DNA of 35,678 nt from Actinomycetota bacterium (GTDB lineage Bacteria; Actinomycetota; Acidimicrobiia; IMCC26256; PALSA-610): NCBI GenBank assembly GCA_046727335.1, contig JBKPCL010000036.1, positions 1 through 35,678 of the forward strand, in the 5' to 3' direction. Below are positions 2 to 16,906 of this stretch, piece after piece. A program made the translations under genes and the position numbers. Below the pieces are notes generated by a model that was not told where the DNA came from, did not search any database, and saw only the letters and a list, made by a program, of their open reading frames with translations. Position 1 is the stretch's first letter. Every line of letters begins with the position of its first letter.

Positions 2-3000
2 GCTCTCCTGTACTCGTATGTTCTCGGAGCTCCGGTGTACGGCGCGGTCTCGGTGGCGCGAAGCCAGTTCTACGTCGGCGCGACCGACGGACTGCTCTAC
101 GCGTTCGGGCTCGGCGCCGCGCCGACCGCGCCGCCGGCAGACCCGAACTGTCCGACGGGATTCACGTGCCAGGACGTCCGCAATCCTCTGCCGGGCAGTG
201 AGCAGACGGCGAACGGGGTCCTCACGGTCACGGCGAGCGGCGCGGCGATCCATGGCACCGCCGACCAGTACCGATCGATCGGGAAGCTCGTCACGGGCGA
301 CTCGCAGTCGAGTGTGACGGTCGTCGCGCAAAGCACACAGAACAAACAGCCGCAGGCCGGCCTGATGGTGCGCCAGGCGTACGGCACGAGCACCGACCAA
401 GGTGCGCCGTTCTTCGCGATCCTCGCGTACCCGAACGACCTCACCGAGGGACTCCCGCAGCCGATGGTCGTCATCTGGTACCGGTCCCAGTTCGGCAAGA
501 ACTCGATCGAGCTGACGAAGTGGTATCCGGCCAACAAGCCGGTCTCGGTCATGATCCAGCGCGTCGGCAACCTCTTCAGCGCGGGCATCTCGTTCGATGG
601 AGCGAACTTCCAACTCATTCCGGGCGCGTCGGTCAGCATCGACATGCCCACGACGACGTTGCAGGGGCTCGCGGTCGACTCGGGATCGACCACGAATTAC
701 GGCACCGCGTCCTTCACCAATCTCTCGGTTGGGGGTCCGGTCGTCACGCCGATGACACTCCAGCTGCCGGTCCATCCCTGCCCCGCACCTTGGACGTGCC
801 AGGACATCGGGAACCCGAACCCGCCGGGCGACACGACGGCAACCGGAAACTCGGTCAACCTCGCCGGCACCGGCACGGGCTTCGGAGGCGCCACCGACTC
901 GCTGCACTACGTCTACCAAACCGTTTCCGGGAACCAAACGATCGGCGCGCAGGTCGTGACCGCGCCGCCCGCGTCGAACGCGCAGATCGGGTTGATGATG
1001 CGCGCGAGCACTGCTCCGTCGGCGCCCATGTACAGCGTGTACCTCAAACCGGGCGGTGCCGCGACCGTGCAGTGGCGGGCCTACGACGGCATCGCGTACC
1101 GCAAGAGTGTGCCGATCCCCACCGTCACGTCTCCGGCGTACCTCCAAATCCTTCGCTTTCAGGACACGCGCTTCAATCCGCCGGTGACGTTCTTCGGAAC
1201 CATGACCTCACCGGACGGCGTTTCGTGGACGCCAGTGCTCGGGTCATCGGTCGCGATCGATATGGGCCCGGGTTCGTACCTCGCCGGTCTCGCAGCAACA
1301 ACCGCGGTCGCGCGCGCCACGACACCCGGAACCTTCAACAACGTCACCTTTGGCACGCCGCAGACACCGCCACCCGGCGTCTGCCCCGACGAGTTCACCT
1401 GCGCAGACGTCGGCATTCAGAGCCTCCCGAGCAACGAGGTGTTCCTGAACGGAACATGGACGATGCAGGCGAGCGGCAGTGACATCTGGAGCAACTACGA
1501 CACGTTCCATTTCGCCTACCAGGCCTTCCCGGACGACCCCGCGAACTCGAACAACGGCGACGGCACGATCAGCGCGCGCGTCGTCTCGCAGACGAACGTC
1601 GGAGGGCCGTGGATGAAGTCCGGCGTGATGATCCGCGCCGGGACCGACCCACAGGCTCCCTACTACGGCGTCTTCGTGACGCCCGGCAACGGCGTCGCCG
1701 TGCAATGGCGCGCCGGCCAGGCCCAGCAAACGACGCAGACACTTGCCCCGGGCGTGCACGCGCCGGCCTTTGTCCTGGCGTCGCGCTACACCGACACCGC
1801 TCACAACAACATCGTGTACTACAGCGCGTTCACTTCGCCCGACGGTGTCACGTTCACCTATGTCCCCGGCTCGACCGTGAGCCTCGATCTCCCTGGACCT
1901 CTCGTCGCCGGGATCGCAAGCAACTCGTACGACTCGGGCACCACCTCGGTCGCGACCTTCGACAGCGTCGCCCAGCTGCCGGGATCGCAGCCGCCGCCGT
2001 TCATCTGCCCGCCCGGCTGGAACTGCGCAGATCTCGGTGGCGCCCTTCCGCCTGGGCAAGACCAGCTCACGTCATCGGGAACTTGGAACGAGATCGGCGG
2101 AGGCGGCGACATCTGGGGGACCGCGGACTCGTTCCACTTCGTGTCGCAGACATTGCCCGTCAATGGGACTGCGAGCGCGCAGGTCACGGCGCAACAAGCG
2201 ACGGACCCGTGGGCGAAGGCAGGACCGATGCTGCGCACGAGCACAGACCCCGGTGCGCCCTACTACGCAGCGTTCATCACGCCGAGCAACGGCATCGCGG
2301 TCCAGTGGCGCGCCGTACAAGATGGCGCGTCGAGCCAGCTGGTAGTCCCCGGTGCCGCGCCCGCATACCTCATGGTCAACCGGTTCACGACCACAGGCGC
2401 GAATCCGCGGACGTACCTGGCGGCATACACGTCGAACGATGGCAACACCTGGACCCCGATCGGTTCCTCGGTGATGCCGTTGAACCTCGGCGGCCCACTG
2501 CTTGGAGGCTTCGCCATCACGTCGCACAACCAAGGAGCGGGATCGGCGGTCACGCTCGATTCGGTCGCAGTCACCGCGACCGACCTCGCGCCACCCGGAG
2601 TGTGCCCGGCCGAGTGGCAATGTGCCGACCTCGGCGGAGCGACGCCTGCCGGCAGCCAGGATCTCTCCGGAGACACGTGGACGATCAACGGAGGCGGAGG
2701 CGACATCTGGGGAACCGCCGACTCCTTCCGTTACCTGTGGCAACCGATGGCGGGCGACGGGACACTCAGCGCGCAGTTCGTGTCGCAAGGCAACACGAAC
2801 GACTGGGCCAAGGCCGGCGTGATGCTCCGGCAGACGACGGATCCCGGGTCGCCCTACTACGCCGCGTTCATCACTCCGGCAAACGGTGTCGTGATCCAGT
2901 GGCGCACCGCCCAGGGCGACGTCTCGTCCCAGGTGACGACTCCGGGCGCGCCCGCGCTGTATCTCCAGATCGTGCGGACCGGGACGACGTTCACGGCCGC

Positions 3001-3157
3001 GACGTCTCCCGACGGAATCACGTGGACGCCGGTGCCCAACTCTGCCGTTGACATACCGAGCTTGACCGGAGGTTTGCTCAGCGGGCTCGCCGTGACATCA
3101 CACGATACCGGCGTGCTGTCGACGGTCGTCGCGAACTCGGTGGTCACGACGCCATGA
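2..3157 (+). CDS. Secreted multidomain protein, 5'-truncated by the window edge: the last blade of a PQQ/FG-GAP-like beta-propeller followed by five tandem ~200-aa concanavalin-A-like (DUF1349-like lectin/glucanase fold) modules
   Basis: The frame is open from nt 2, with no stop upstream of the GTG at 35. The sequence ...YVGATDGLLYAFG is a propeller-blade motif. Five modules open with CPxx[FW]xCxD[VIL]G at nt 149, 779, 1382, 2006 and 2603. They carry GGDIWG-x-ADSF-x-[FY]..Q, WAKAG[VP]M[LI]R, GAPYYA-F-[IV]TP-NG and QWR motifs. Stop TGA 3155-3157 overlaps the next ATG. Confidence 0.8.
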   Translation, partial: ALLYSYVLGAPVYGAVSVARSQFYVGATDGLLYAFGLGAAPTAPPADPNCPTGFTCQDVRNPLPGSEQTANGVLTVTASGAAIHGTADQYRSIGKLVTGDSQSSVTVVAQSTQNKQPQAGLMVRQAYGTSTDQGAPFFAILAYPNDLTEGLPQPMVVIWYRSQFGKNSIELTKWYPANKPVSVMIQRVGNLFSAGISFDGANFQLIPGASVSIDMPTTTLQGLAVDSGSTTNYGTASFTNLSVGGPVVTPMTLQLPVHPCPAPWTCQDIGNPNPPGDTTATGNSVNLAGTGTGFGGATDSLHYVYQTVSGNQTIGAQVVTAPPASNAQIGLMMRASTAPSAPMYSVYLKPGGAATVQWRAYDGIAYRKSVPIPTVTSPAYLQILRFQDTRFNPPVTFFGTMTSPDGVSWTPVLGSSVAIDMGPGSYLAGLAATTAVARATTPGTFNNVTFGTPQTPPPGVCPDEFTCADVGIQSLPSNEVFLNGTWTMQASGSDIWSNYDTFHFAYQAFPDDPANSNNGDGTISARVVSQTNVGGPWMKSGVMIRAGTDPQAPYYGVFVTPGNGVAVQWRAGQAQQTTQTLAPGVHAPAFVLASRYTDTAHNNIVYYSAFTSPDGVTFTYVPGSTVSLDLPGPLVAGIASNSYDSGTTSVATFDSVAQLPGSQPPPFICPPGWNCADLGGALPPGQDQLTSSGTWNEIGGGGDIWGTADSFHFVSQTLPVNGTASAQVTAQQATDPWAKAGPMLRTSTDPGAPYYAAFITPSNGIAVQWRAVQDGASSQLVVPGAAPAYLMVNRFTTTGANPRTYLAAYTSNDGNTWTPIGSSVMPLNLGGPLLGGFAITSHNQGAGSAVTLDSVAVTATDLAPPGVCPAEWQCADLGGATPAGSQDLSGDTWTINGGGGDIWGTADSFRYLWQPMAGDGTLSAQFVSQGNTNDWAKAGVMLRQTTDPGSPYYAAFITPANGVVIQWRTAQGDVSSQVTTPGAPALYLQIVRTGTTFTAATSPDGITWTPVPNSAVDIPSLTGGLLSGLAVTSHDTGVLSTVVANSVVTTP

Positions 3158-4743
3158 TGAGCAGAAAGGCACAGGAGCCGGCGCGTTCCGACGACGGCGC
3201 CAGGGTCTTCCGCCGCCGCGACGGGCGCATCCGGGTGGTGCGCGAATCCTTCATCGACCTCGCGGCCCTCGAACAGGATTCGGAGGCCGACGAGGTCGCG
3301 TACGTCGCGAAGCTCGAGATTCTCGGCCGTGCGACGCGCGACGAGGGACTGCTCTCCCGATCGCAGAAAGTCGCGGGACTCCTCGCGATCGCCGCGGGGG
3401 TCATCGCGTTGCTCATCGCGCCGGTGTTCACCGTCGTCGCGGTCAATGCGGCGCTCGTCATCTTCTTTTGCAGCGCGACGGTGATGAAGCTCGTGCTCAC
3501 CGACCGCGGGATCAAGGAGAACTGCGCGGTCGTCATCTCTCAAAGCGAGCTCGACGCGATCGCCGACGAGGACCTCCCGATGTACACGATCCTGTTGCCC
3601 GTGTACCGCGAAGCAGGGATGCTCGGACAGCTCGTCGACGGCATCGGCGCGCTCGATTACCCGGCTGAGCGGCTCGACGTGAAGTTGCTCGTCGAGGAGG
3701 ACGACGTCGAGACGCGCGAAGCCGCGGCCGCGATGGAACTTCCTCCGTACTTCGACGTGATCGTCGTCCCCGACGTGGGGCCACGGGGCAAGCCCCGCGC
3801 GTGCAACCAGGGGCTGGTCCGGGCAAAGGGCGAGTTCCTCGTCATCTACGACGCGGAGGACCGACCCGAGCGCGACCAACTACGGAAGGCCGTCTGTGCG
3901 TTCAGTCGTGCTCAACCTGACGTCGTGTGCCTGCAAGCGAAGCTCAACTATTTCAACCGCACCCACAACCTCCTCACGCGCTGGTTCACGGCCGAGTACT
4001 CCGTGTGGTTCGATCAGCTGCTGCCGGGACTGCAATCCGCCGACGTGGCGATCCCACTCGGTGGCACGTCGAATCACTTCATCACCGCGCGCCTGCTCGA
4101 GCTCCACGGCTGGGATCCGTTCAACGTGACCGAGGACGCGGACCTCGGTATGCGGATCTTCCTCCGTGGTTGGAAGACGGCAATCCTCGACACCACCACG
4201 TACGAAGAGGCGACGAGCCGCTACCGCAATTGGATCCGCCAGCGCAGTCGTTGGGTCAAGGGCTACACGCAGACGTTCCTCATGCACACGAGACGTCCGC
4301 GTGAACTCCTGCACCGTATGGGACCGAAGGCCTTCATCGTGTTCGTGCTGTTCTTCGGTGCGGGAACGCTGTGTCTCCTCCTCAATCCTCTCTATTGGCT
4401 GCTCGCAGCATGGTGGTTCGCGAGTCATCAACACTGGATCGAAACAATCTTCCCGAGACCGGTGCTCTACGCGGGCACCGTCGCACTGTTCATCGGGAAC
4501 GTGGCCTGTCTGCTCATGATCGTGGTCGGAACGTTCAGCCGGCGTAACTACGACGATGTGAAGTGGGCGTTTCTGAGCCCCCTGTACTGGCTGCTGATGT
4601 CCGTCGCCGCCTGGAAGGCGGTCACGCAGCTCTTCTACAAGCCGTCCTTCTGGGAGAAGACCGAGCACGGCTTCTGCCGCTACGAGCCCGAGAACCTGGT
4701 CACCGTTCCTGCCCGCGCTGAACAGAGGGAGTCGGTCTCGTGA
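3154..4743 (+). CDS. Membrane-embedded processive family-2 glycosyltransferase (beta-glycan synthase type, CslA/BcsA/PgaC-like architecture)
   Basis: One N-terminal TM helix (LLAIAAGVIALLIAPVFTVVAVNAALVIFF) and a GT-A core. Core motifs are LLPVYRE, DYPAERLDVKLLVEEDD, GKPRACNQG, DAED (DxD), TEDADLGMR (TED) and QRSRWVKG (QxxRW). About four C-terminal TM helices follow. ATGA overlap with the upstream gene at 3154-3157. Confidence 0.9.
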   Translation: MMSRKAQEPARSDDGARVFRRRDGRIRVVRESFIDLAALEQDSEADEVAYVAKLEILGRATRDEGLLSRSQKVAGLLAIAAGVIALLIAPVFTVVAVNAALVIFFCSATVMKLVLTDRGIKENCAVVISQSELDAIADEDLPMYTILLPVYREAGMLGQLVDGIGALDYPAERLDVKLLVEEDDVETREAAAAMELPPYFDVIVVPDVGPRGKPRACNQGLVRAKGEFLVIYDAEDRPERDQLRKAVCAFSRAQPDVVCLQAKLNYFNRTHNLLTRWFTAEYSVWFDQLLPGLQSADVAIPLGGTSNHFITARLLELHGWDPFNVTEDADLGMRIFLRGWKTAILDTTTYEEATSRYRNWIRQRSRWVKGYTQTFLMHTRRPRELLHRMGPKAFIVFVLFFGAGTLCLLLNPLYWLLAAWWFASHQHWIETIFPRPVLYAGTVALFIGNVACLLMIVVGTFSRRNYDDVKWAFLSPLYWLLMSVAAWKAVTQLFYKPSFWEKTEHGFCRYEPENLVTVPARAEQRESVS

Positions 4744-6401
4744 CGTCGAGTGCTGTGGCCGCGCCCGACGCGGCCGCTCTCGAGCAGCCAGGATCGGTCG
4801 AAACGCGCGAAGCGGGTGACGCGCGTGCCCCGCGTCGCCCGCTTCGCCTGCTGGCAGCCTCGCTGTCGCCACGCAGGAGCACGCCACGGACCGCGGTCGC
4901 CCTCGCCTACGTCGCCGCGGCTGCCGCGACGATCTGGTCTGCCGCGACGCACTCGATGCTCCTCTATGGCGACGCGCGCGCACACCTCAACGTCGCGCGT
5001 CACGTGACCGACGGGCTCCAAACGGGATTTACGCAGCTCGGCAGCGTGTGGCTCCCGATGCCGCACCTCCTCCTAGTTCCTTTCACCGCGTCACGATTGT
5101 TGTGGCACAGCGGCATGGCGGGAGCAATTGTCGGCGTCGAGTGCTTCGCATATGCGTCCGTGAGGATCTTCAACATCGTCGACGACCTCACCGACAACCG
5201 ACTGGCCGCGTGGTGCGGGTTCCTGCTCTTCATCGCGAACCTCAACATGCTCTACGTGCAGTCGACCGCGCTGACCGAGCCTGTACTGCTCGCGTTCATG
5301 ATCGGAGCGACGTACCACTTCGTGCGATGGATGCGCACGTTGTCCGTGCGCGAGCTGATGTGGGCGGCGATCTTGACGATGCTGGCCACGCTCACCCGTT
5401 ATGAAGGTTGGGCGCTGCTCATCGCAGGCGTTTGCGTCGTCGCCTATTGGGGGCTGCTCGCTGACCGTCGCCGCAAATCGCAGCAGGCGAACCTGGTGCT
5501 CTACACAATCGTCGGCGGGTACGGCATCTTGCTGTGGTTCATCTACAACCTGACCATCTTCGGCGATCCGCTGTACTTCCTCCACAGCCAATACAGCGCC
5601 CAGGTCATCAACGGATCGCAAGCTCGCTTCGGTCTGCTCGGCACCAAAGGCAACCTCGTCGAGAGCCTGCTCACCTACGGATGGGATGTCGCCGGTGTCG
5701 TCGGTCCCCTCGTCCTGATCGCGGCCGCTGTCTCGGTCGTCGTCCTGTCGACAGCTCGCGATGCCCGTCGTCGCCGGATCCTCTGCACGCTCGCGCTTCT
5801 CGGGGCGCCGGTTGCGTTCGAGGTCGTGTCGCTCTATCTGGGACAGACCACCATCCGAGTGCCGCAGCGCCTTCCGCACGGCATGTGGAACGACCGCTAC
5901 GGGCTGGTGGCACTTCCCCTCTGCGTGGTCGCGATCGCGACCGTGTTCGGCCGTAAGCGAATCCTCGGCGCGCTCGTTGTCATCACCGGAGTTCTCGGGA
6001 CGGCATCGTTGGCGTTCGGTACGCCGCTCACGTTGGCCGACGGCCGCACCGGCACCTCGAGCGCGGCAGCCGGTCGACCGGAGCGCGCCGCCGCGTTCTT
6101 GCACGCGAACTACCGCGGGGGCGAGATCCTCGCTGACGACTCCGCCGCTTCGGCATTCATGTTCGCCACCGATCTCGACCTCAAGGAGTTCGTCAGTCCC
6201 GGATTCGGCCGTTACTGGCGGCGAACACTGGTTGCTCCCGGGTCATACGTGCGCTGGGTTGTCGCCGTACCCGGTGACGCCATCTCCGCTGGTCGTAAGC
6301 ATCATCCAGATCGCTTCAGCGCCTTCCGACTCGTGTTCACCGACAGGGACATCAAGGTGTACAAGTTCGTCAATCCGGAGCAACGCACGCGAGCATTCTG
6401 A
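4740..6401 (+). CDS. Polytopic membrane protein, probable GT-C-fold glycosyltransferase (ArnT/PMT-like) with a C-terminal extracytoplasmic domain
   Basis: GTGA start/stop overlap with the GT2 gene at 4740-4743. About 11-13 hydrophobic helices. The first loop carries an acidic/His motif (YGDARAHLNVARHV) that resembles the PMT/ArnT loop-1 motif. A ~110-aa soluble tail follows. The family assignment is by architecture only. Confidence 0.65.
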   Translation: MTSSAVAAPDAAALEQPGSVETREAGDARAPRRPLRLLAASLSPRRSTPRTAVALAYVAAAAATIWSAATHSMLLYGDARAHLNVARHVTDGLQTGFTQLGSVWLPMPHLLLVPFTASRLLWHSGMAGAIVGVECFAYASVRIFNIVDDLTDNRLAAWCGFLLFIANLNMLYVQSTALTEPVLLAFMIGATYHFVRWMRTLSVRELMWAAILTMLATLTRYEGWALLIAGVCVVAYWGLLADRRRKSQQANLVLYTIVGGYGILLWFIYNLTIFGDPLYFLHSQYSAQVINGSQARFGLLGTKGNLVESLLTYGWDVAGVVGPLVLIAAAVSVVVLSTARDARRRRILCTLALLGAPVAFEVVSLYLGQTTIRVPQRLPHGMWNDRYGLVALPLCVVAIATVFGRKRILGALVVITGVLGTASLAFGTPLTLADGRTGTSSAAAGRPERAAAFLHANYRGGEILADDSAASAFMFATDLDLKEFVSPGFGRYWRRTLVAPGSYVRWVVAVPGDAISAGRKHHPDRFSAFRLVFTDRDIKVYKFVNPEQRTRAF

Positions 6402-6512
6402 TTCTGGCGCGCACATCGCGCATTGTTCACCTCGGATCCTTCAACCTCTGAGCGTGTTTTGGCCGATAGCACAAGCTGACCATTCGGCCTGACGATCTCA
6501 GGGGGACCTGAA

Positions 6513-7457: not shown

Positions 7458-7472
7458 CGCGTCGGTAGCGCG

Positions 7473-7498
7473 AGCGCGGCGTCGGGAGGCGCCGCGCT
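7473..7498. terminator. GC-rich hairpin between convergent genes (possible bidirectional terminator)
   Basis: AGCGCGGCG (7473-7481) pairs perfectly with CGCCGCGCT (7490-7498) around an 8-nt loop. No U-tract. The hairpin touches the stop codon of the minus-strand gene. Confidence 0.4.
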
Positions 7499-10293
7499 CA
7501 GCCGACGACGACGCTGTCCATGGTCACCGTGCACAGCGCACCGGCGTTGTGCGAGTTGTCCGCGAGGCCCGCGAGCAGCGTCGCCCCGACGTTCATGGTG
7601 AAGACGGATCCCGGGATGAGGGACCACGTCACCCCGTCAGCCGACGTGTACGCGCTGAACGTGTTCGCCGAACGACTGACCTTCAGGAAGACAGGCACCG
7701 TTCCGGTCGGGTTGGCGAGCTTGACGGTCGTGCCGCCCTGTGTTGCGCGCTCTTGCACCTTGATCCCGACACTGGGTGACACCAACACCGCGTAGTTGGG
7801 AGCACCGGCATCGCTACTCGCGCGGAGCATGACGCCGGCCTTGGCGTTGGTGCTGCTGTTCGTTTGGGTGATCACCTGCGCGCTGATGCTGCCGTCGCCC
7901 GTCAAGGACTGCGATACGAAATGGAACTGATCCGCGGTACCCGTGATGTCCGTGCCGCCACCGACGAGCGTCCACGTGCCGGTACCCGAATCGAAGGACT
8001 GAGTCCCCGCGAGCGCCGGGCTTCCAATGTCGGCGCAGGTCCACGGCGCCGGACATGGCAGCGGCGGCCCCGATGTGGTCGACGTCGTACTGCTGCTCGT
8101 CGTGCTCGTCGTGCTCGTCGAGGACGTCGACGACGAGCTTGTCGTCGAGCTCGTCGTGGTGGTCGTCGTGCTCGTCGGTGACGGCGGCGCCAGCGTTCCC
8201 GACAGCGAATCCATCGTCACGGTGCCCGCCACGCCGTTGTTGTGCGAAGTGACCGCGAGTCCCTCGAGAACTGTCGCGCCGAGGTTCATCGTGAAGGTCG
8301 AGCCGGCGATGAGGGACCAGTTCGCTCCGTCAGTAGACGTGAAGGACTTGAACGTCGAGCCCGCCCGCGTCACCTTCACGTACGCGGGGACCGTGCCTGT
8401 GGGGTTCGCGAGCTTGACCGTCGTACCACCCTGCGTGGATCGCTGTTGCACCTTGATCCCTTGTCCCGGTGTGACGACGACGCCGTAATACGGAGCGGCG
8501 GGATCCGTGCTCGCCCGCAACATGACGCCGGCCTTCGCCGCGGAGTTCATGCCCGCCATCGACGCCACGCGCGCCGCGATGTTGCCGTCGCCCGTCAGCG
8601 ACTGCCACACGAACCGGAACTGGTCGTTGGTCCCGCTGATGTCCGCGCCGCCCGCGGTGATGCTCCAAGCACCGGTGTTCGGATCGAAGAACTGGCTCCC
8701 CGCGGGCGTGGGATTTCCGATGTCGGCGCAGGTCCACGGCCCCGGACACGGAATGGGTGGCGCCGGTGCCGGCGGCTTGCCGGAGAGCACGATCGAGTCG
8801 ATCGTGGCCTGGCTCAACTGCGTGCCGTCGTTGGATGCGACGGCGAGACCAGCGAGCAGTTGTGATCCGAGCGCGGCCGGAGCCGACGATCCCGCGATCT
8901 TCTGCCAGACATAGCCGTCGGCAGAGTCATACGTCGTCAGCGTTCCTCCGATGTCGGCGACCCAGAGGTACGCGGGCGCGGCCCCCGCGAGGTTCACGAG
9001 GGAGACGGCCGGCCCTCCTTGAGTTGCTCGCTGCAGTACCGACACTCCGCTTCCCGGCGTGACGAACGCGGCGTAGTACGGCGCGCCGGGATCGGTACCG
9101 GCGCGCAGCATCACACCGGCCGGCGCCGCCGCGTTGGTGTTCGTCTGGGAACCGACGCGGGCACCGATTCCCACGTCAGGAGTCACGCTCTTCCACACGA
9201 AATGGAATTGATCCGACGTGTCGGTGACGCCACTACCTCCGCCCGCCACCGTCCAGGTGCCGGACGCCGCCGCGAAACTCTGAGCGCCAGCGGGCGTCGC
9301 TCCACCGATGTCGGCGGCGTTCCACGCGCTCGAGTCATCGGTCCACATCACCTCAGCGGTTTTGGACCGGAAGCTTCCGACCGACGTCACCGTCGCACGA
9401 ACGGCGTCTTCGCCCTCACCTTGTCCCGAAAACGTGAATGCAGCATGACCGTTCGAATCAGTCAAGACGCTCTGCGTGAGTCCGGCATCGGGGCCGCTTG
9501 TCACGTCGAACCGGACGGCGACGTTCGGGAGTCCGCCACCGCCTCCATCGAGGAGGCTCGCCGTTTCCGTCACCGATCCGCCGGCGAATTGCGTCACGGT
9601 TGCGGGACCGAGCGTCAGCGTGGCGAAGTTGCTTCCGGCGCTGCCGATCGCACGCCACTGGATGGACTCGTTGCGCTTGGGAGTGCAGGAACCGGCATCG
9701 ATACCCCCGCTGTCGAGGACGTGAGTGCTGTCCGCGAGGGTGGTCGGCACGCCGGCGATCGTGATCGTGACGGTTGGCGCGACCGTGAGCGGCGTGCAGT
9801 TCTTGTCGGGATAACTGCTCGTATCGAAGTTGTCGAACGTCGGATTGTTGTTCGGCGGGTTCTCGGTGAGGATCACGCTCTGTCCGGCGGGCACGGTGAA
9901 CGATCCCCAGAGGTTCGTGAAGACCTTGCCGCCCGGAACCGAGGAGTGATCGTCGACGTCGACTCGATCGACGTGCACCGGCGCCGGCCCCGGATTATCG
10001 AGTCGGATCGCACCGGCGTCGTAGCAAACCGTGAGGGTGCCACAGTTGCCGGCGCCGGGGAAGGTGCCGCCGAGAAAGACGGTGTTCGGCGCGCCCGCCC
10101 ACGGGACAGGGAAGGCGGGAGGATCCGGGGTGTTGATTTCCTTGTCCTCGGCGTATCCCACGAAGACGCCTAGTCCGGCCGGGGGTGTCGCGCGGGCCGT
10201 GCGGCTCGTCAGGGCGACTGCCACGGGGACACACAGTGACGCGAGCAACGCACTCGATGCGAGCACGGCTCGGGCGCGAATCGTTCGCTTCAT
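7498..10293 (-). CDS. Secreted multidomain protein: unknown N-terminal domain, bacterial Ig-like (Big_1-type) domain, three ConA-like/DUF1349-like modules, and a Ser/Thr-rich linker before the last module
   Basis: Preferred start is the ATG at 10293 (MKRTIRARAVLASSALLASLCVPVAVALTSRTARA signal peptide, GAGG RBS 6 nt upstream). The ORF is open to 10362. The Ig-like segment is GSVTETASLLDGGGGGLPNVAVRFDVTSGPDAG...SNGHAAFTF. The modules share the motifs of the gene at 2..3157 (CPGPWTCADIG at 8748, CPAPWTCADIG at 8055, AKAGVMLRA..DP.AP.Y). Confidence 0.85.
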   Translation of the reverse strand: MKRTIRARAVLASSALLASLCVPVAVALTSRTARATPPAGLGVFVGYAEDKEINTPDPPAFPVPWAGAPNTVFLGGTFPGAGNCGTLTVCYDAGAIRLDNPGPAPVHVDRVDVDDHSSVPGGKVFTNLWGSFTVPAGQSVILTENPPNNNPTFDNFDTSSYPDKNCTPLTVAPTVTITIAGVPTTLADSTHVLDSGGIDAGSCTPKRNESIQWRAIGSAGSNFATLTLGPATVTQFAGGSVTETASLLDGGGGGLPNVAVRFDVTSGPDAGLTQSVLTDSNGHAAFTFSGQGEGEDAVRATVTSVGSFRSKTAEVMWTDDSSAWNAADIGGATPAGAQSFAAASGTWTVAGGGSGVTDTSDQFHFVWKSVTPDVGIGARVGSQTNTNAAAPAGVMLRAGTDPGAPYYAAFVTPGSGVSVLQRATQGGPAVSLVNLAGAAPAYLWVADIGGTLTTYDSADGYVWQKIAGSSAPAALGSQLLAGLAVASNDGTQLSQATIDSIVLSGKPPAPAPPIPCPGPWTCADIGNPTPAGSQFFDPNTGAWSITAGGADISGTNDQFRFVWQSLTGDGNIAARVASMAGMNSAAKAGVMLRASTDPAAPYYGVVVTPGQGIKVQQRSTQGGTTVKLANPTGTVPAYVKVTRAGSTFKSFTSTDGANWSLIAGSTFTMNLGATVLEGLAVTSHNNGVAGTVTMDSLSGTLAPPSPTSTTTTTTSSTTSSSSTSSTSTTSTTSSSTTSTTSGPPLPCPAPWTCADIGSPALAGTQSFDSGTGTWTLVGGGTDITGTADQFHFVSQSLTGDGSISAQVITQTNSSTNAKAGVMLRASSDAGAPNYAVLVSPSVGIKVQERATQGGTTVKLANPTGTVPVFLKVSRSANTFSAYTSADGVTWSLIPGSVFTMNVGATLLAGLADNSHNAGALCTVTMDSVVVG
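8065..8186 (-). repeat. Low-complexity Ser/Thr linker (about 40 residues, PPSPTSTTTTTTSSTTSSSSTSSTSTTSTTSSSTTSTTSGPP)
   Basis: Read directly from the translation. On the plus strand it appears as reiterated GTCGTC/GCTCGTCGT units. Confidence 0.9.
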
Positions 10294-10467
10294 CGACGAC
10301 CTCACTCCGAGTCTCTGCCTCGCCCCGATGCAGGCGCGCCGATACGTCGGCGCAGCATCCATGTAGAGGCCGTCGGCTCCGACCTGATACGCCGATTGCT
10401 GCGAGAGCGAATCGTCGAGCCGTCCCTCCGCGTATCAGGGACCCCCGGCGACGCTCATATACGCGCT

Positions 10468-11526
10468 ATGCGCGCCAGGGTGCTGCTCGCCGTCCTGGGG
10501 TGTGCAGCCCTTCTCGCCGCATGCCTTGGGCCGCCGCCTCCTCCTCCCCCGCCACCGCCGCCGCCCCCCGCTGCGGTCTCGATCTGCGGCATGAGTTTCT
10601 GCGCGGGCGGACAACCGTGGTCGATGTACGGCTCGACGATCTACAACCCAGGCCTCACCCCGTACCTCTCGGGCATCAACAATCCCTCGGGCACGATCGA
10701 CCTCGTGAATCAGGCGCATCTCAACACGATCCGCATCACCAACTTCCTGGACAGGGAAGGTGATCCGTCGACTGCGCCGTATGACGCGACGCGCTGGGCG
10801 AAGGTGGACGCCATGATCGCCGCGGCCTATGCCGCCGGCCTGCACGTGATCCTGGGAATCTCGGACTATCGGTCGATGCTGTGGAACAACTGCATCAACC
10901 CCTACACAGCCGACTGGACGAACTTCATCACCTTCGTGGCGAACCGGGTCAACACCGTGACGCACGTCGCCTACAAGAACGATCCGACCATCGCCTTCGT
11001 CTCCATCGCTGGTGAGCCGCTCTCCGTCGGCGCGCACACGTTTACCGCGAAGGTCACCGGACACTCGTGCACGCTCAGTTACACGACGCAGCAGCTCACC
11101 GGCTTCTATCGCTCGACGACGACTGTCTGGCAGCACCAGCAGCCGTCGGTGCTCGTCAACTCCGGCGGCCTGACCTATCTCGACCTCGACGACTCCGGTA
11201 TTGACTGGCAAGCGATCTTCGCGCTTCCCACGGTCGCCTTCTGCGACATCAAGACCTATGGCGGGATGCTCGCGTGGGCGCCGAACGCGGTCTCCTACTG
11301 TCAATCGCTGGGCAAACCGATCGTCGACGAGGAGTTCGGCTGGCGCCAAAGCGTCGGCGACCGTGTGCGGAGTCAGAAGTTCGCGGACACCTACTCGGCA
11401 TTGAGGTCGATGCACTTCGCCGGAGTGGCGTTCTGGAATCTTGGTTACCAGCTCGGCGGGTCGAGTTATGAGGTCAATCCCGCGACGCACTACACGTTTG
11501 CGGTCGTGCGGAGCAACGCGCCGTGA
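10468..11526 (+). CDS. Lipoprotein glycoside hydrolase, clan GH-A / GH5-like (beta-mannanase-like TIM barrel) with a poly-proline tether
   Basis: Preferred start is the ATG at 10468 (MRARVLLAVLGCAALLAAC, lipobox LAAC). The ORF is open from 10396. Thirteen consecutive Pro codons lie at 10531-10569. YKNDPTIAFVSIAGEP is at the acid/base Glu position. GKPIVDEEFGW is at the nucleophile Glu position, typical of GH5 mannanases. Confidence 0.75.
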   Translation: MRARVLLAVLGCAALLAACLGPPPPPPPPPPPPPAAVSICGMSFCAGGQPWSMYGSTIYNPGLTPYLSGINNPSGTIDLVNQAHLNTIRITNFLDREGDPSTAPYDATRWAKVDAMIAAAYAAGLHVILGISDYRSMLWNNCINPYTADWTNFITFVANRVNTVTHVAYKNDPTIAFVSIAGEPLSVGAHTFTAKVTGHSCTLSYTTQQLTGFYRSTTTVWQHQQPSVLVNSGGLTYLDLDDSGIDWQAIFALPTVAFCDIKTYGGMLAWAPNAVSYCQSLGKPIVDEEFGWRQSVGDRVRSQKFADTYSALRSMHFAGVAFWNLGYQLGGSSYEVNPATHYTFAVVRSNAP

Positions 11527-12887
11527 CCGTCGATGCGGCCGTCGCCACAACTTCTCGAGGTTCCGGCCCGGCCCGGCTGACCGCGGCCGCGAAGCGGATC
11601 CCCCTTCCTGAGGGCACGTGGGCGATCGGCACCGGGCTCGTGATCATCGGCGTCACGACGTACGCCTTCCAGGTGCTTGCGGCCCGGCGCCTGTCGGATT
11701 CGGACTACGCCGCACTCAACGCCCTGTGGGCGATCGTGTTCGTCGTCACGCCCGGATTGTTCCTGCCACTCGAGCAGGAGGTCGCGCGCGCCCTCGCCCG
11801 CCGGCGCGCGTGCGGAGCCGGCGGCGCGCCGATCGTCAGGCGCGCCGCCGTGCTCGGTGGCGCGCTCGCAGGCGCGGTCATCGTGGGCGCCGCGATCTTC
11901 GCCAAGCCCATCGTGAACGAGCTCTTCAACGGCAACGCCGGCCTGCTGGTCGCGCTGATCGTCGCCGTCGCCTTCTACTACGTGGCGCATCTCGTGCGCG
12001 GCACGCTGGCCGGGAACGGCCGCTTCGGGTCGTACGGGTTGTACCACGGCACCGAAGGCACGGCACGCGTGACACTGTGCTTCGCTCTCTTCGCGATCGG
12101 CGCAACGGCATCGGGTCTCTATGGCTTGGCGCTCGCCGTCCCGCCGCTGCTCGCAGCGTTGATCGCGCTACGCGGGGAGCACGGTCTGCTGGTGCCCGGT
12201 CCCGACGCGCCCTACGCTGAGCTGTCGAGCGCGCTCGGACTCCTGTTGCTCGCGTCACTGCTCGCGCAACTCCTGTCGTACGCGCCCGTGCTTGCCGCGC
12301 AACTGCTCGCGGCACCGTCACAGAAGGATCTCGTCGCCAAGTTCGTGACCGGGTTCTTCGTCGCCCGCATTTCTCTGCTGCTCTTCCAGGCCGTCCAGGC
12401 CGCGCTGCTCCCGAAACTCTCGCGGCTGGCGGGCGAAGGACGGCACGACGACTTCCGGCGTGGCTTACGACAGCTCCTCATCGTGGTGATCGCCGTGTGC
12501 ACGATCGGCACGCTCGGCGCCGCGATTCTCGGCCCGACCATTGGTCGAATGCTCTTTCCGACCAAGTGGGTGTTCGGTTCGCGCGACCTCATGCTGCTGA
12601 CGCTCGGATCGAGCCTATTGATCATCGCCCTGACGCTCGCGCAGGGACTCATCGCACTCGAGGCGTTCGCGCGTGCGGCGTTGGCCTGGGCCGTCGGCGT
12701 CGCGGTGTTTCTGGTACCGCTCGCCCTCGTCCACGACTTGTTCCTTCGCACGGAACTTGCGTTCGTCGCCGGTTGTGCCGCGGCGACGATCGTGATGGCC
12801 GCGGCACTCGCCGTGCGCATGCGGCAGACTCGACCAAGGCTCGACGAGCTCGTCGAAGTGCTCGAACACGAGCCCGTGGAGGTCTAG
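11523..12887 (+). CDS. Polysaccharide-biosynthesis / MOP-superfamily (Wzx-like) flippase-like polytopic membrane protein
   Basis: GTGA overlap with the GH5 gene at 11523-11526. 454 aa with about 12-14 hydrophobic helices and no soluble domain. Assignment is by architecture and context. Confidence 0.6.
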   Translation: MTVDAAVATTSRGSGPARLTAAAKRIPLPEGTWAIGTGLVIIGVTTYAFQVLAARRLSDSDYAALNALWAIVFVVTPGLFLPLEQEVARALARRRACGAGGAPIVRRAAVLGGALAGAVIVGAAIFAKPIVNELFNGNAGLLVALIVAVAFYYVAHLVRGTLAGNGRFGSYGLYHGTEGTARVTLCFALFAIGATASGLYGLALAVPPLLAALIALRGEHGLLVPGPDAPYAELSSALGLLLLASLLAQLLSYAPVLAAQLLAAPSQKDLVAKFVTGFFVARISLLLFQAVQAALLPKLSRLAGEGRHDDFRRGLRQLLIVVIAVCTIGTLGAAILGPTIGRMLFPTKWVFGSRDLMLLTLGSSLLIIALTLAQGLIALEAFARAALAWAVGVAVFLVPLALVHDLFLRTELAFVAGCAAATIVMAAALAVRMRQTRPRLDELVEVLEHEPVEV

Positions 12888-12897
12888 GGGCGAGGGG

Positions 12898-14538
12898 TCA
12901 GCCGGTCGAGGCGATTCCGACGATGGACGCGGGAAGTGCATGTCCCGCGAGACTTCCGACAAAGGCGAGATTCGAGAAGTCGAACACCCCGCCGTCCGAC
13001 GACACCATGAGATAGCCGTTCCCGTAACGGACCATGCCGACGATGGGACGGTTGAGCCGCGTCCCGCCCATCGAGCCGCGGTACGGCGCGTTGAAGGCGA
13101 AGATGCCGCCGTCGGACGCGACGAGCCAGTAGCCGCCCCCGCTCGCGGTCGGGACGAGATCGATCACGGGCCGGTTGAGGTGGTGACCGCCCATCGAGCC
13201 GTAGTAGTGCGCGTCTCCGAACGTGAAGATGCCGCCGTCCGCTCCGACCATGTAGTAGCCATGGCCGGTCGACGTCGCAACCGAACCGACGATCGGTGCG
13301 TTGAGCCGAGTTGCACTCATGTCGCCGTAGCGATGGGCGTCTCCGAACGCAAACACGCGGCCGCGGGACGTGAAGAGCCAGTATCCCTGTCCGGTTGCGG
13401 TCGACGACAGGCTTCGCACTGATTCCCCCGCACCGAGGGCCGGCGAGTTGCCGTGCCACGCGGCATTGCCGAAGCCGAACACTTGACCGGCCGCGTTGAC
13501 GATCCAGTACCCGCGCCGATTCGGCGTCGGCTCGATGTGCACGACCGCGCCCGTGCGCGCACCGCCGTAGTACTGCACGACGCCGAACGCGTAGACCTGG
13601 CCGGTCGCGCCGACCATCCAATAGCCGGTCGTCGCATGTGCAGGCGGCGGCGCAGGCGTTGATGACGGGACTGTGTTTCCGCAGTCGATGCCGGCGTTGA
13701 TGCAATGGGTGACGAGCAGGTTCAACGTGGCGGGTGTCCACGCGTTGAACCAGTCGCCGTGCTCGCTGTAGTACGAGCCCGACGACAGCGTGATGCTCCC
13801 GCGACCATCGATGCCGGGCGGATACTTCACTTCGAGGTTGACCTGCGGGAGCGGAACCGGATGGCCGGCCGGGCATGCGTTGTTGATCGACGCCGCCATG
13901 TGCGAGAGATGGTCAGCGGAGTCGAGATGCACGCCATCCCAACAATCGGGGAATCGGATCCGCATCTTCAACACGCTGCCGGTCGGACACACTGGAGGCG
14001 AGGCGACGCCCGGCATGCTGGCGCCGGAGCACGCCCATGCGATGTGCGCGAGATCGTTCTGGAAGCTCGTCGCCTTGGCGTTCCCCATCACGATCCTGAG
14101 CCCGGCCGGCGGCGTGGCGAGCGCACCGCCGACCTTGTCGCGGTAATACACCTGCGCTGTGGTCGGATCGACGGCTGAGCCGTTGAAGAACAGCGACGGC
14201 ACCCAGTAGCCGGAGCGATCCTGAGCGATGTCACACGTCGTTCCATGCGCCGACAATGACGCGAACGTCGAGAACGCGTTGGTCGACGTGTTGCCGAAGA
14301 AGTTGTGCATGTGCGACGCGCCGGGAACTCCCGGATGCACAATCGGATCATCGGGAAGCGAGTGCGAGAACACACAGTTGGTGTGGAACACACCGCCGCC
14401 GGGACCCGTCGCAACCAATTGCGCGGGCAACGTCGATTGGACCCGACGATCGACGCGAGTGGTGGTCGATGACGCGCACGCGCTCAGTGCGAACATCGCA
14501 AGGGCAACGACACCTGCAATGTGAAGACGAAATCGCAT
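12898..14538 (-). CDS. Lipoprotein fusing an N-terminal DUF1996 domain to six ~42-aa GYW...DGG[IV]F.FG repeats (predicted beta-propeller)
   Basis: Preferred start is the ATG at 14538 (MRFRLHIAGVVALAMFALSAC lipobox, GAGGAG RBS 5 nt upstream). The ORF is open to 14601. The DUF1996 hallmark is DDPIVHPGVPGASHMHNFFGN. Repeats such as GGGYWLVASDGGIFAFNAPYRGSMGGTRLNRPIVGM lie at about 12901-13630. Confidence 0.85.
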   Translation of the reverse strand: MRFRLHIAGVVALAMFALSACASSTTTRVDRRVQSTLPAQLVATGPGGGVFHTNCVFSHSLPDDPIVHPGVPGASHMHNFFGNTSTNAFSTFASLSAHGTTCDIAQDRSGYWVPSLFFNGSAVDPTTAQVYYRDKVGGALATPPAGLRIVMGNAKATSFQNDLAHIAWACSGASMPGVASPPVCPTGSVLKMRIRFPDCWDGVHLDSADHLSHMAASINNACPAGHPVPLPQVNLEVKYPPGIDGRGSITLSSGSYYSEHGDWFNAWTPATLNLLVTHCINAGIDCGNTVPSSTPAPPPAHATTGYWMVGATGQVYAFGVVQYYGGARTGAVVHIEPTPNRRGYWIVNAAGQVFGFGNAAWHGNSPALGAGESVRSLSSTATGQGYWLFTSRGRVFAFGDAHRYGDMSATRLNAPIVGSVATSTGHGYYMVGADGGIFTFGDAHYYGSMGGHHLNRPVIDLVPTASGGGYWLVASDGGIFAFNAPYRGSMGGTRLNRPIVGMVRYGNGYLMVSSDGGVFDFSNLAFVGSLAGHALPASIVGIASTG

Positions 14539-14808
14539 CGGGTCTCCTCGTGATGAACGTGTCGACCGAGCGGGATTCCGTTCCCTAACTGCAGTGCGCA
14601 ACCGGCGCCGGAAGATGCAAGTTTACGACTCGAAGGCCCACACAGGCTGGACCAATCCGCGGAAAGTTGACCCACTCTTCACTTGTCACCATCGCGCGCG
14701 CACCGCTGTTCGTCTCCCACGCGAAGACCGTTGGGACGTGGGATACGTGCGGTTCACCTTCGTTCCGTACGTTCGAGATGCGACCCCTACGTCGAAGGGA
14801 GTGCATCC

Positions 14809-16638: not shown

Positions 16639-16657
16639 CAAGACCAGCCGATAGCGA

Positions 16658-16702
16658 GCGCGCGGCGATCGCTCTCCCACGAAGAGAGGGATCGCCGCGC
16701 GC
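16658..16702 (+). terminator. Strong GC-rich hairpin 20 nt after the phosphoesterase stop
   Basis: A 19-nt arm GCGCGCGGCGATCGCTCTC (16658-16676) pairs with GAGAGGGATCGCCGCGCGC (16684-16702). One mismatch, 7-nt loop. It is followed by AAATTCCTT, so there is no clean U-tract. Confidence 0.6.
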
Positions 16703-16892: not shown

Positions 16893-16906
16893 GTGACACA
16901 TGTCAC
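16893..16906. promoter_or_regulatory. Perfect inverted repeat GTGACA-CA-TGTCAC in the MMPL leader (candidate operator)
   Basis: Read directly from the sequence. An extra TGTCAC half-site lies at 16845-16850. The repeat sits about 120 nt upstream of the MMPL start. Confidence 0.3.

Follow-up and report, generated by a model that had tools for sequence, protein, structure and literature searches.

Gene content of the locus

The window, that is, the whole stretch of 35,678 nucleotides that was analysed, comes from a soil actinobacterium of the Acidimicrobiia, and the cluster at positions 2-14538 contains eight open reading frames. In all eight, third-position GC lies between 0.79 and 0.87, the GC3 pattern of real genes.

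g1, 2..3157, + strand: secreted protein, C-terminal 1051 aa, with the end of a PQQ-type beta-propeller and then five ConA-like (DUF1349-fold) modules
g2, 3154..4743, + strand: processive-synthase-type membrane GT2; start and g1 stop overlap in ATGA
g3, 4740..6401, + strand: predicted membrane glycosyltransferase of the GT-C fold whose C-terminal part is an extracytoplasmic alpha/beta domain; start and g2 stop overlap in GTGA
g4, 6513..7457, + strand: membrane-anchored or secreted DUF1996 protein (Pfam, 3.6e-37) with a Thr/Pro-rich tail
g5, 7498..10362, - strand: secreted protein with an uncharacterised N-terminal region, Big_1, three ConA-like modules and a poly-Ser/Thr linker; probable start, ATG at 10293
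g6, 10396..11526, + strand: GH5 lipoprotein, with lipobox LAAC and then a run of 13 Pro; probable start, ATG at 10468
g7, 11523..12887, + strand: distantly MurJ/MOP-like membrane protein of about 12 TM segments; start and g6 stop overlap in GTGA
g8, 12898..14601, - strand: lipoprotein (lipobox LSAC) with DUF1996 (Pfam, 3.6e-44) and six repeats of about 42 aa, GYW..DGG.F.FG; probable start at 14538

The genes, domains, motifs and overlapping start and stop codons described in the original prediction were all present. The 4-nt overlaps were read directly at 3154 (g1/g2), 4740 (g2/g3) and 11523 (g6/g7), and 4-nt overlaps were likewise found in the relative L100. The g1 frame is open at the contig edge, in such a way that its first 423 aa or so are cut off, and its signal peptide is visible only in the full-length L100 orthologue (1474 aa, 86% identical), which has an N-terminal anchor and a PQQ_2 propeller. 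The five modules of g1 (nt 149-778, 779-1381, 1382-2005, 2006-2602 and 2603-3154; starting at aa 50, 260, 461, 669 and 868) are about 200 aa each and share 26-55% pairwise identity. An AF2 model of module 4 (pLDDT 93) had its best Foldseek match in 3o12, a DUF1349 structure, with a TM-score of 0.66-0.70.

As for the glycanase g6, the protein has the two catalytic Glu residues (in AGEP and DEEFG), the Pfam Cellulase profile was matched with 36.4 bits (5.4e-9, cutoff 23.5), and the best PDB matches were the endo-beta-mannanases 4qp0 (1e-7) and 8gf3 (5e-7), unlike the GH5 partner in Nocardioides, which is nearest to endoglucanases. No PDB relative of g4 was found by sequence. The description of g7 as flippase-like is based on its roughly 12 hydrophobic segments and on a weak MurJ match in 3 of 20 homologues.

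The synthase-type GT2 and its GT-C partner

The g2 protein matched Pfam Glyco_tranf_2_3 at 2.7e-25, and by a simple hydropathy scan it has three or more stretches of strong hydrophobicity, one near the N-terminus and two near the C-terminus. Invariant in the family alignment were the motifs D233-A-E-D236, T326-E-D328 and Q363-R-S-R-W367, and the best match of the family profile was BcsA (2.5e-18, versus 3e-4 for HAS). With its D, DxD, TED and QxxRW motifs and BcsA as its best solved relative, g2 is plausibly a polymer synthase.

This family is very widespread, with at least 597 relatives in species-representative genomes and identities of 42-53% across phyla, in which a GT-C gene is a recurrent neighbour. 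Outside the Acidimicrobiia, the other recurrent neighbours are BcsB, GH5, a GDP-mannose-pyrophosphorylase-like gene (assigned by eye), GtrB/PgfS-like GT2s and MshEN domains. A BcsB homologue (PF03170, 6e-57) adjoins g2 orthologues of 42-53% identity in 13 loci, and a conjugative plasmid of Geobacillus carries a compact nucleotidyltransferase-BcsB-GT2-GT39 cassette. Some orthologues carry, at the N-terminus, repeats resembling MshEN on visual inspection, or are preceded by a standalone MshEN gene (1.6e-12). The g2 motifs, the match to BcsA and the BcsB, GH5 and MshEN neighbours bear out the proposal of a synthase-type glycan locus.

The g3 gene is preceded by GGGAG 10 nt upstream of its start. 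As the original prediction had it, the protein is GT-C-like, which was borne out at the level of fold, since the top 18 Foldseek matches of its AlphaFold model (pTM 0.75) were GT-C enzymes, but not by Pfam PMT, where it scored 19.3 bits, below the cutoff of 22.7. Of 58 neighbours compared across phyla, 56 have an acidic residue (D or E) at the position of D78, which lies in its first outer loop. The modelled fold and this near-universal acidic residue make g3 plausibly an active GT-C enzyme. Among 98 loci, 57 contain a g3-like gene, which in most of them immediately follows the GT2. The GT2/GT-C pair is a module spanning phyla and not a local oddity. The GT-C is not obligatory, because many orthologous GT2s (39 of 79 loci outside the Acidimicrobiia) have none within 10 kb. 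A single GT2-GT-C fusion was detected (P0216), which may be an assembly error because the GT2 is split there into two reading frames. In some 10 protein clusters the synthase GT2 has a GtrA-like domain as a fusion partner. Searches of the literature returned no published study of the GT2/GT-C core and no experiment on any member of the g2 family.

The conserved gene set of the Acidimicrobiia

Sixteen related loci define the set found in this class: a Big_1 and lectin protein, a small ArnC/DPMS-like GT2, a PQQ-propeller protein with ConA-like repeats, the BcsA-like GT2, the GT-C and a GH5. The gene order, from the small GT2 through the propeller-lectin protein, GT2 and GT-C to GH5, is kept, and in 11 relatives the GT2 is immediately preceded by a g1-like gene. 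Orthologues of g5 (55-61% identity) are found in at least nine Acidimicrobiia loci, where they are co-directional and head the cluster. Those of g6 (41-67% identity) follow the GT-C in seven loci and precede the g1-like gene in L010; an N-terminal ConA-like module, joined to the GH5 by a Ser/Thr linker, is present in those of L002, L005, L008 and L009. This single linked module, together with the ConA-like fold of the AF2 model, suggests that the lectin module may serve to bind what the locus makes.

The window lacks the small GT2 only because g1 is already cut by the start of the contig. In relatives, including the 84%-identical L100, it is encoded just upstream of the g1-like gene, and it is present in 14 of the 16 Acidimicrobiia loci, with ArnC (2.7e-21 in PDB, 1.8e-24 in NCBIfam) and DPMS as best matches. 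In P0097 and the Patescibacteria fusion F25, a domain homologous to it forms one protein with the synthase GT2, and a PgfS-like neighbour (F17, 6.7e-74) was detected in Paenibacillus. A GT-C was found in 12 of 14 loci with the small GT2 versus 28 of 65 without it (p = 0.006). The coexistence of small GT2 and GT-C points to a step with polyprenyl-phosphate sugar outside the membrane. Neither the small GT2 upstream of g1 in relatives nor the cross-phylum GT2/GT-C module figured in the original prediction.

Because the synteny is conserved, the clustering of g1, g2, g3, g5 and g6 goes far beyond chance. The proposed triplet of GT2, lectin-repeat protein and GT-C proved to be a conserved, tightly linked unit, by its synteny in relatives and its 4-nt overlaps, and in the Acidimicrobiia it is conserved together with the GH5 and the second lectin protein. 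It had also been claimed that the known accessory proteins are absent and that multi-lectin and DUF1996 proteins take their place. BcsB, a neighbour of orthologous GT2s elsewhere, is indeed absent here, with a ConA-like repeat protein in its place, but the role given to DUF1996 as a replacement did not stand. We consider it about evenly probable that positions 2-11526 hold the version found in Acidimicrobiia of a synthase-dependent glycan system that is widespread, with the BcsA-like GT2 coupled to the GT-C glycosyltransferase as its invariant core.

Proposed mechanism, alternatives and related systems

The cluster may well make and export a sugar polymer, as a synthase-dependent beta-glycan system. 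In the mechanism that we propose, g2 would polymerise a beta-linked hexose polymer (glucan or (gluco)mannan) from nucleotide sugar at the cytoplasmic face, and its membrane domain would be the channel through which the polymer is extruded. The small GT2, whose gene lies just off the contig, would load a sugar onto polyprenyl phosphate, and g3 would decorate the polymer with this lipid-linked sugar as it emerges on the outside of the membrane or, less likely, would attach the polymer to something. The multi-module ConA-like proteins g1 and g5 would bind and organise the polymer, in the place that BcsB has elsewhere, and the GH5 lipoprotein g6 would trim or release it. Taken as a whole, this mechanism has in our view an even prospect of being right. 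The Geobacillus cassette, in which the GT-C is present without a dedicated polyprenyl-phosphate sugar synthase, counts against it, and the acceptor of g3 could be a protein instead of the polymer.

Such a protein acceptor is the basis of an improbable alternative, in which the ArnC/PgfS-like GT2 and the GT-C act in O-glycosylation like Ppm1/Pmt or the streptococcal PgfS/PgfM, the targets being the Ser/Thr/Pro-rich linkers of the co-encoded lectin-repeat and GH5 proteins and the product of the synthase GT2 being separate. Homologues of g3 weakly match PMT and PMT_2, the protein glycosyltransferases DPY19, STT3, PglB and Pmt4 are among its top Foldseek matches, the Paenibacillus neighbour is PgfS-like, and long Ser/Thr/Pro linkers exist in g5, g4 and the GH5 of relatives. 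However, in phyla without a lectin-repeat protein the GT-C still goes with the synthase GT2, the g3 start overlaps the GT2 stop codon, and g3 lacks PMT-specific features, with no MIR domain and a Pfam score under the cutoff. Comparably unlikely is a lipid-primed synthase with a ligase: like O:54 WbbF, g2 would extend a glycan from a polyprenyl-phosphate primer supplied by the small GT2, and g3, in the manner of WaaL or an oligosaccharyltransferase, would pass the completed chain on in one piece to an acceptor, either a protein or part of the envelope. The DPM1-like and GtrA-like domains fused directly to the synthase GT2 in relatives would fit this, oligosaccharyltransferases are among the nearest structural matches of g3, and the Geobacillus cassette would need no separate donor synthase. 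Against it, the BcsB-type partners and the BcsA-like sequence suggest extrusion of a free chain, which a trimming GH5 also suits better, and the TM-scores of g3 are similar for all GT-C classes (0.4-0.5), in such a way that the oligosaccharyltransferase likeness is not specific.

Two further alternatives are less probable still. The original prediction in its full form, in which g4 and g8 with their DUF1996 domains and the 12-TM g7 belong to the assembly machine as integral accessories, is quite unlikely. In its favour, the three are adjacent in the contig, all are extracytoplasmic or membrane proteins, the g7 start and the GH5 stop codon overlap, a weak match (8-19 bits) links the g7 profile to the membrane part of a Patescibacteria GT2 mega-fusion, and the g8 repeat domain recurs in related loci fused to a GH5-like domain (L006 and L019). 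Within 10 kb of the GT2 in 99 related loci there was no DUF1996 homologue, a failure of co-conservation that tells against the DUF1996 proteins as parts of the system, and no g7 homologue except a distant g7-like ORF in L033; the cluster of the relatives is contiguous without the three genes. Their clustering with the locus is not beyond chance, and in this comparison of gene neighbourhoods they appear as local neighbours whose involvement lacks support from conservation. Very improbable is that g2 is a membrane glycolipid glycosyltransferase (GT21-like) and that no exopolysaccharide is made. Many g2 homologues show a faint Glyco_transf_21 match, and ceramide glucosyltransferase also has QxxRW, but BcsA is the best solved match of g2 over the GT domain and the following helices, BcsB, GH5 and MshEN adjoin the GT2 in other phyla, and the GH5 of relatives has a lectin module as binding module.

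Among known systems, BcsA-BcsB(-BcsZ) shares with the synthase reading the GT2 motifs, a cognate endoglycanase gene nearby, a true BcsB homologue adjoining orthologous GT2s in Chloroflexota, Bacteroidota and Bacillota, and, in g2 relatives, MshEN, a known c-di-GMP-binding domain. It differs in that the similarity of g2 to BcsA is remote (phmmer 1.6e-11) and without a PilZ domain, BcsB is replaced in the Acidimicrobiia lineage by the PQQ-propeller/ConA-like repeat protein upstream of the GT2, the glycanase is GH5 and not GH8, and the GT-C has no counterpart in Bcs systems. The comparison with Streptomyces cslA-glxA-cslZ made in the original prediction holds for the general logic, in which a synthase-type GT2 of an actinobacterium is accompanied by a glycanase and an extracellular partner; it is a loose analogy, as there is no GlxA-type copper radical oxidase here and the GT2 clade and the glycanase family are others.

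The three-component extracytoplasmic glycosylation systems (GtrA/GtrB/GtrC; CsbB/GtcA/YfhO; ArnC/ArnT; PpgS/Rv3779; PgfS/PgfM) likewise bring together an ArnC/DPMS/PgfS-like GT2, a GT-C and, as in relatives of this locus, a GtrA-like domain, there fused. Here, in contrast, these components lie inside a synthase operon and are tied to a BcsA-like GT2, with the GtrB-like gene and GtrA outside the window itself. We know of no such system that decorates a synthase-made exopolysaccharide. The synthase-dependent O-antigen system of WbbF with the WaaL ligase combines a processive GT2 with a multi-spanning membrane transferase acting on lipid-linked glycan outside the membrane, which we take, by analogy only, as a possible logic for g2 and g3. 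Some g2 homologues bear in JGI annotation the KEGG name of the Xanthomonas biofilm GT2 XagB, a label only, the Xag polymer of Xanthomonas itself being uncharacterised. In NfrB-NfrA-YbcH of E. coli, the N4 glycan receptor synthase, a GT2 with DxD, TED and RQxSRW is controlled via MshEN, to be compared with the MshEN-linked g2 orthologues; NfrB and g2 are only 22% identical (E 6e-7), and the system of NfrB has a C-terminal MshEN, the outer-membrane partner NfrA and no GT-C.

Gene content of the locus and its predicted synthase

The window is a complete metagenomic contig of 35,678 nt. The codon-position GC supports eight genes within its positions 2-14601, and the nearest genome relatives of the window are MAGs of soil Acidimicrobiaceae/Acidimicrobiales.

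Genes of the locus
g1, 2-3157, + strand: open at the contig edge; a beta-propeller tail and then five modules of ~200 aa, with 26-55% mutual identity
g2, 3154-4743, + strand: GT2 glycosyltransferase (Glyco_tranf_2_3, 2.7e-25) with motifs D233-A-E-D236, T326-E-D328 and Q363-R-S-R-W367
g3, 4740-6401, + strand: multi-spanning membrane protein with a sub-threshold PMT match only
g4, 6513-7457, + strand: DUF1996 protein (3.6e-37)
g5, 7498-10362, - strand: Big_1 plus three modules of the g1 kind
g6, 10396-11526, + strand: GH5 lipoprotein
g7, 11523-12887, + strand: ~12 hydrophobic segments, without a family match
g8, 12898-14601, - strand: lipoprotein with DUF1996 (3.6e-44) and six repeats of ~42 aa

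The genes, domains and start/stop overlaps of the original prediction proved accurate, as seen from the GC codon pattern, the Pfam matches and direct reading of the overlaps (ATGA at 3154 and GTGA at 4740); one more, GTGA at 11523, was read between g6 and g7. The Rfam scan of the window gave no match, and in the scan for promoters and terminators the consensus matches were intragenic only and no promoter was found.

The three motifs of g2 are invariant across 15 homologues and align with those of BcsA, and three hydrophobic segments were detected at a strict hydropathy threshold (aa 79-97, 393-411 and 443-461). With the family profile, the best solved structure was BcsA (2.5e-18), the match extending over the GT domain into the helices that follow it, and hyaluronan synthase reached 3e-4 only. 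Together with the BcsB, GH5 and MshEN partners that its relatives have in other phyla, the motifs and the BcsA match support that g2 is a BcsA-like polymer synthase, as judged from sequence, and the claim of a synthase-type glycan locus is supported. The locus would work in a Bcs-like manner, yet it is not a member of that system: no PilZ domain was matched in g2 by the domain search, its score against the CelA/BcsA equivalog TIGR03030 (61.6 bits) is far below the cutoff of 699, and no BcsB was found in the window or in the related Acidimicrobiia loci. In other phyla, 13 loci have BcsB beside the g2 orthologue. The predicted absence of GlxA and BcsB was thus borne out, since the domain searches found no GlxA-type copper radical oxidase domain in any product of the window, in such a way that the oxidase partner of the Streptomyces cslA-glxA-cslZ system is missing. 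E. coli NfrB was considered as an orthologue of g2 and dropped, being a distant relative only (22% identity). The mixed-linkage glucan synthase of Romboutsia, which carries PilZ and is without such neighbours, was also dropped, and the KEGG name XagB is a mere label whose polymer is not known.

Conserved partners in Acidimicrobiia

The conservation of the locus was studied by tblastn in 16 related loci of Acidimicrobiia, each taken with 10 kb on either side. A GT-C gene like g3 was present in all of them, directly downstream of the GT2 wherever the latter is visible (one locus, L038, is a short contig with just the 3' end of the GT2), and lectin-module proteins were also found in 16/16. Eight loci carry a g6-type GH5 (41-67% identity) and at least nine a g5-type Big_1 protein. 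ORF clustering showed an extra conserved member, a soluble GT2 of ~285 aa present in 14 of the 16 loci, whose best solved relatives are ArnC (2.7e-21), an archaeal Dol-P-Man synthase (1.3e-13) and GtrB, and whose best NCBIfam matches are ArnC, Dol-P-hexose transferase, AglJ, PgfS and PpgS. The usual order, on a single strand, is Big_1-lectin protein, small GT2, propeller-lectin protein, synthase GT2, GT-C and GH5. In the closest relative, L100 (GT2 84% identical), the small GT2 is followed by the g1 orthologue and then by the GT2 with the same 4-nt overlap; this orthologue has 1474 aa, with an N-terminal anchor, a PQQ-type propeller of ~420 aa and five modules. This layout indicates that the contig end alone explains why the small GT2 and ~423 N-terminal residues of g1 are missing from the window.

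Two variations were noticed among the relatives. One Acidimicrobiaceae MAG contig (CAVWHF010000003.1; L007 and L012) has two GT2/GT-C clusters ~16 kb apart, each with its own lectin proteins. In L009 (15182-21385), and also in L008, L011 and L017, the cluster is followed closely by a second conserved set of synthase type, formed by a 687-aa GT2 (multi-TM N-terminus, QRTRW), a 523-aa HlyD-like protein and a membrane-anchored protein of 893 aa that matches GH26 once and Big_3_5 twice and, by eye, resembles a tandem duplication; this set is absent from the window.

Fold prediction was needed because the searches against PDB sequences were empty for the lectin-module profile, for g3 (alone and as a profile), for g4 and for the g7 profile. 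The model of module 4 of g1 (pLDDT 93.3) is a ConA-like sandwich, with 3o12 (DUF1349; 5.9e-7, TM 0.66-0.70) and 3mep as nearest Foldseek matches, followed by legume lectins, CBM66 and a GH43 C-terminal domain. The Pfam scores for DUF1349 (PF07081) are 26.3 bits in g1 and 28.3 in g5, both below the cutoff of 32.4, and the DUF1349 literature gives no biochemical function. The other PQQ-propeller protein of the window (29695-31974) was compared with the g1 propeller and is not a paralogue of it.

The g6 protein scores 36.4 bits against Pfam Cellulase (cutoff 23.5), and its nearest PDB sequences are GH5 endo-beta-mannanases (1e-7 and 5e-7). Both catalytic glutamates are kept in the alignment to the mannanase 4qp0, with AGEP opposite ANEP and DEEFG opposite MEEYG. 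In four relatives (L002, L005, L008 and L009) the GH5 bears one N-terminal ConA-like module joined by a Ser/Thr linker. Because this is the architecture of a CBM on its enzyme, the ConA-like modules are predicted to bind the glycan that the GH5 cuts, and we infer from this fusion the best evidence here for glycan binding by them. A different situation was seen by eye in the GH5-like protein of L016 (8215-9414, - strand) and in the GH5-like domains of L006 and L019, which seem to show PW(Y/F)L(S/A)AWSAC in place of the nucleophile motif DEEFGW of g6 and may lack the catalytic nucleophile.

The DUF1996 proteins and g7 behave otherwise. The DUF1996 domain (PF09362) scores above the cutoff of 27 in g4 (129.1 bits) and g8 (152 bits), spanning profile positions 1-237 in both; neither this domain nor g7 has a homologue in 99 related loci, as tblastn and six-frame phmmer agree. 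The original prediction had placed the DUF1996 proteins within the glycan system, and with 0/99 related loci this part of it fails, lack of co-conservation being what that prediction had named as refuting. A look-up of the exact g4 sequence found no other contig with an identical copy, and no biochemical function is given in the DUF1996 literature. Removing DUF1996 from the model averts a functional assignment that is attractive but lacks support. The only part of g8 that recurs in related loci is its C-terminal repeat domain, fused on the N-terminal side of a GH5-like domain in L006 (18449-20578) and L019 (~18600-20700). The ~42-aa repeat (GYW.VASDGG.F.FG.A.FYGS...LN.PIVGM), at 12898-13640 (- strand) in g8, also ends the unrelated PQQ-propeller protein of the window (29695-30400, - strand) and is probably an extracellular module widespread in Acidimicrobiia. 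Regarding g7, predicted as flippase-like, the multi-TM nature was maintained (~12 segments), but a MOP family match is absent for g7 itself, which matched no family, and weak MurJ matches were found in just 3 of 20 scanned homologues (best 5.7e-5), out of ~1,900 homologues among 50%-identity representative proteins.

The GT-C protein and the core pair across phyla

The AlphaFold2 model of g3 (mean pLDDT 74.5, pTM 0.75) was compared with the PDB by Foldseek, and GT-C enzymes filled each of the top 18 places. DPY19, STT3 and PglB account for the first 13 (E <= 1e-3, probability 1.00, TM 0.41-0.51), and AftA, Pmt4, Emb, AftB and PimE followed with weaker E-values. The first extracytoplasmic loop contains D78, which does not vary among 38 close homologues; of 58 GT-C neighbours in other phyla, 56 have D or E at this position. 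Pfam scores were below cutoff for PMT (19.3 versus 22.7) and PMT_2 (16.3 versus 26.1), and the domain searches gave no match to MIR or PMT_4TMC in g3. Enzymes of the GT-C class use polyprenyl-phosphate-linked donors. The modelled protein combines the fold with the conserved acidic residue that an active GT-C has, and is predicted to use a polyprenyl-phosphate donor, with indirect support for this donor link from the ArnC/DPMS-like GT2 co-encoded with it in relatives.

An alignment-based scan of species-representative genomes yielded at least 597 relatives of g2 (42-53% identity), found in Chloroflexota, Solirubrobacterales, Gaiellales, Nocardioides, Paenibacillus/Cohnella and Mucilaginibacter/Pedobacter, and further in Patescibacteria, Planctomycetota and MAGs labelled Gammaproteobacteria. 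Among 79 loci from outside Acidimicrobiia, 40 have a g3-type GT-C within 10 kb, adjacent and co-directional in 26, and 13 have a true BcsB homologue (PF03170, 6e-57), 11 of them together with the GT-C. The GT-C was present in 12/14 loci with the small GT2 versus 28/65 without it (p = 0.006, the loci being phylogenetically non-independent). Other recurring neighbours are GH5 lipoproteins, GtrB/PgfS-like GT2s and MshEN domains, and a GDP-mannose-pyrophosphorylase-like gene was recognized by eye in 7/79 loci. MshEN is a c-di-GMP-binding domain (PMC5013675). In Solirubrobacterales, a standalone MshEN gene of 99 aa lies directly upstream of the GT2 (L045, 8925-9221; Pfam 1.6e-12), and the Chloroflexota GT2 orthologues, of ~1,300 aa (L059, 7529-11458), have long N-terminal repeats that are MshEN-like by eye; no MshEN-type domain was found in the GT2 of the window.

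Fusions were also detected. In ~10 protein clusters the g2 homologue is fused to an N-terminal GtrA-like domain, and in P0097 to a DPM1-like GT2 domain. In a single protein of ~1,550 aa, a DPM1-like GT2 is combined with the synthase GT2, a multi-TM region of weak g7 resemblance and a GT4 (L094, 9134-13846, and also L058, L074, L090 and L097, from Patescibacteria and some Gammaproteobacteria-labelled MAGs); the match of the g7 profile to the membrane part of this Patescibacteria fusion is low-scoring and collinear, and one ORF in L033 was also matched. An apparent GT2-GT-C fusion (P0216) is regarded with doubt, since in its locus a frame change splits this same GT2. A compact arrangement is carried by the conjugative plasmid pEF60063-1 of Geobacillus stearothermophilus (L101, 3997-10734), a four-gene cassette of sugar-phosphate nucleotidyltransferase, BcsB, GT2 and a GT39-family protein, whose GT2 is 47% identical to g2 and which has transposase and integrase genes on its flanks. 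The core module is thus mobile, and the cassette offers a tractable experimental entry. No description of a GT2/GT-C(/BcsB) system came up in full-text literature searches.

Proposed mechanism, its alternatives and flanking genes

The most economical mechanism would be one in which g2 extrudes the backbone, g3 glycosylates it at the outer face with a lipid-linked sugar, the multi-module ConA-like proteins take the position that BcsB has elsewhere and hold or organise the product, and the GH5 trims the polymer. Decoration of the polymer by g3 is predicted because of its GT-C fold and acidic residue, and because the donor synthase is co-operonic or fused in many relatives. Regarding the backbone, the mannanase-like GH5 of the window, the GDP-mannose-pyrophosphorylase-like neighbours and the GH26 in the second synthase cluster of relatives would fit mannose; the endoglucanase-like GH5 that is the partner in Nocardioides, and BcsB, may point to a glucan.

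Other explanations were weighed against this mechanism. In one, the targets of the GT-C and the small GT2 could be Ser/Thr-rich linkers in the secreted proteins, glycosylated in the manner of Pmt/Ppm1 or PgfS/PgfM, but the GT-C pairs with the synthase across phyla, even in loci without lectin proteins. In another, chain growth by the synthase could take place on a lipid-linked primer, with the GT-C as the ligase that moves the completed chain to an acceptor, as in WbbF/WaaL; this fits the domain fusions and the Geobacillus cassette, where no donor synthase is encoded. That g2 is a glycolipid glycosyltransferase is unlikely given its partners, and the idea that the DUF1996 proteins and g7 could be integral to the machine gets no support from conservation.

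The extrusion and glycosylation mechanism borrows the three-component logic of Gtr/Arn/Pgf, but set within a synthase operon: the GT-C is in the window, the GtrB/ArnC-like GT2 is seen in relatives, L100 included, and only off this contig, and the GtrA-like domain only as a fusion in some g2 homologues. The novelty specific to the lineage is the Acidimicrobiia accessory set of propeller/ConA-like proteins and lectin-tagged GH5; of broader reach and greater interest is the GT2/GT-C core. We put forward tentatively, as a possible though rather doubtful generalization, that this pair represents a cross-phylum class of glycan machinery not recognised before, a synthase/lipid-carrier hybrid in which the backbone extruded by a BcsA-like synthase would be glycosylated or ligated outside the membrane by a dedicated GT-C with a polyprenyl-phosphate sugar, the extracellular partner being BcsB or, in Acidimicrobiia, the ConA-like repeats, so that the PQQ-propeller/ConA-like proteins would be a new functional analogue of BcsB.

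Synthase-dependent exopolysaccharides, such as cellulose, PNAG, alginate and Pel, have a central part in biofilm and cell-surface biology, and the known ways in which such polymers are modified comprise acetylation, deacetylation, epimerisation and the addition of phosphoethanolamine. If true, a conserved GT-C partner would add a new kind, in which a lipid-linked sugar feeds the extracytoplasmic glycosylation or transfer of the polymer. The core pair is present in hundreds of species-representative genomes, among them those of Chloroflexota, Bacillota, Bacteroidota and Patescibacteria. Acidimicrobiia are abundant and poorly cultured soil bacteria, for which a major surface glycan is predicted from the locus, along with a family of large multi-lectin proteins to handle this glycan.

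Directly after g8, the window encodes (14683-19156, + strand) a secreted protein of the phosphoesterase family (PF04185, 9e-70), which includes phospholipase C and acid phosphatases, and then an MMPL transporter; this pair is possibly related to envelope lipids and has no counterpart adjoining the cluster in relatives. Further downstream (27560-29771, - strand), the ORF at 28614-29771 covers just positions 1-163 of the 399-position ammonium-transporter model and the ORFs overlapping downstream of it are without a family match, so this gene may be frameshifted or miscalled.
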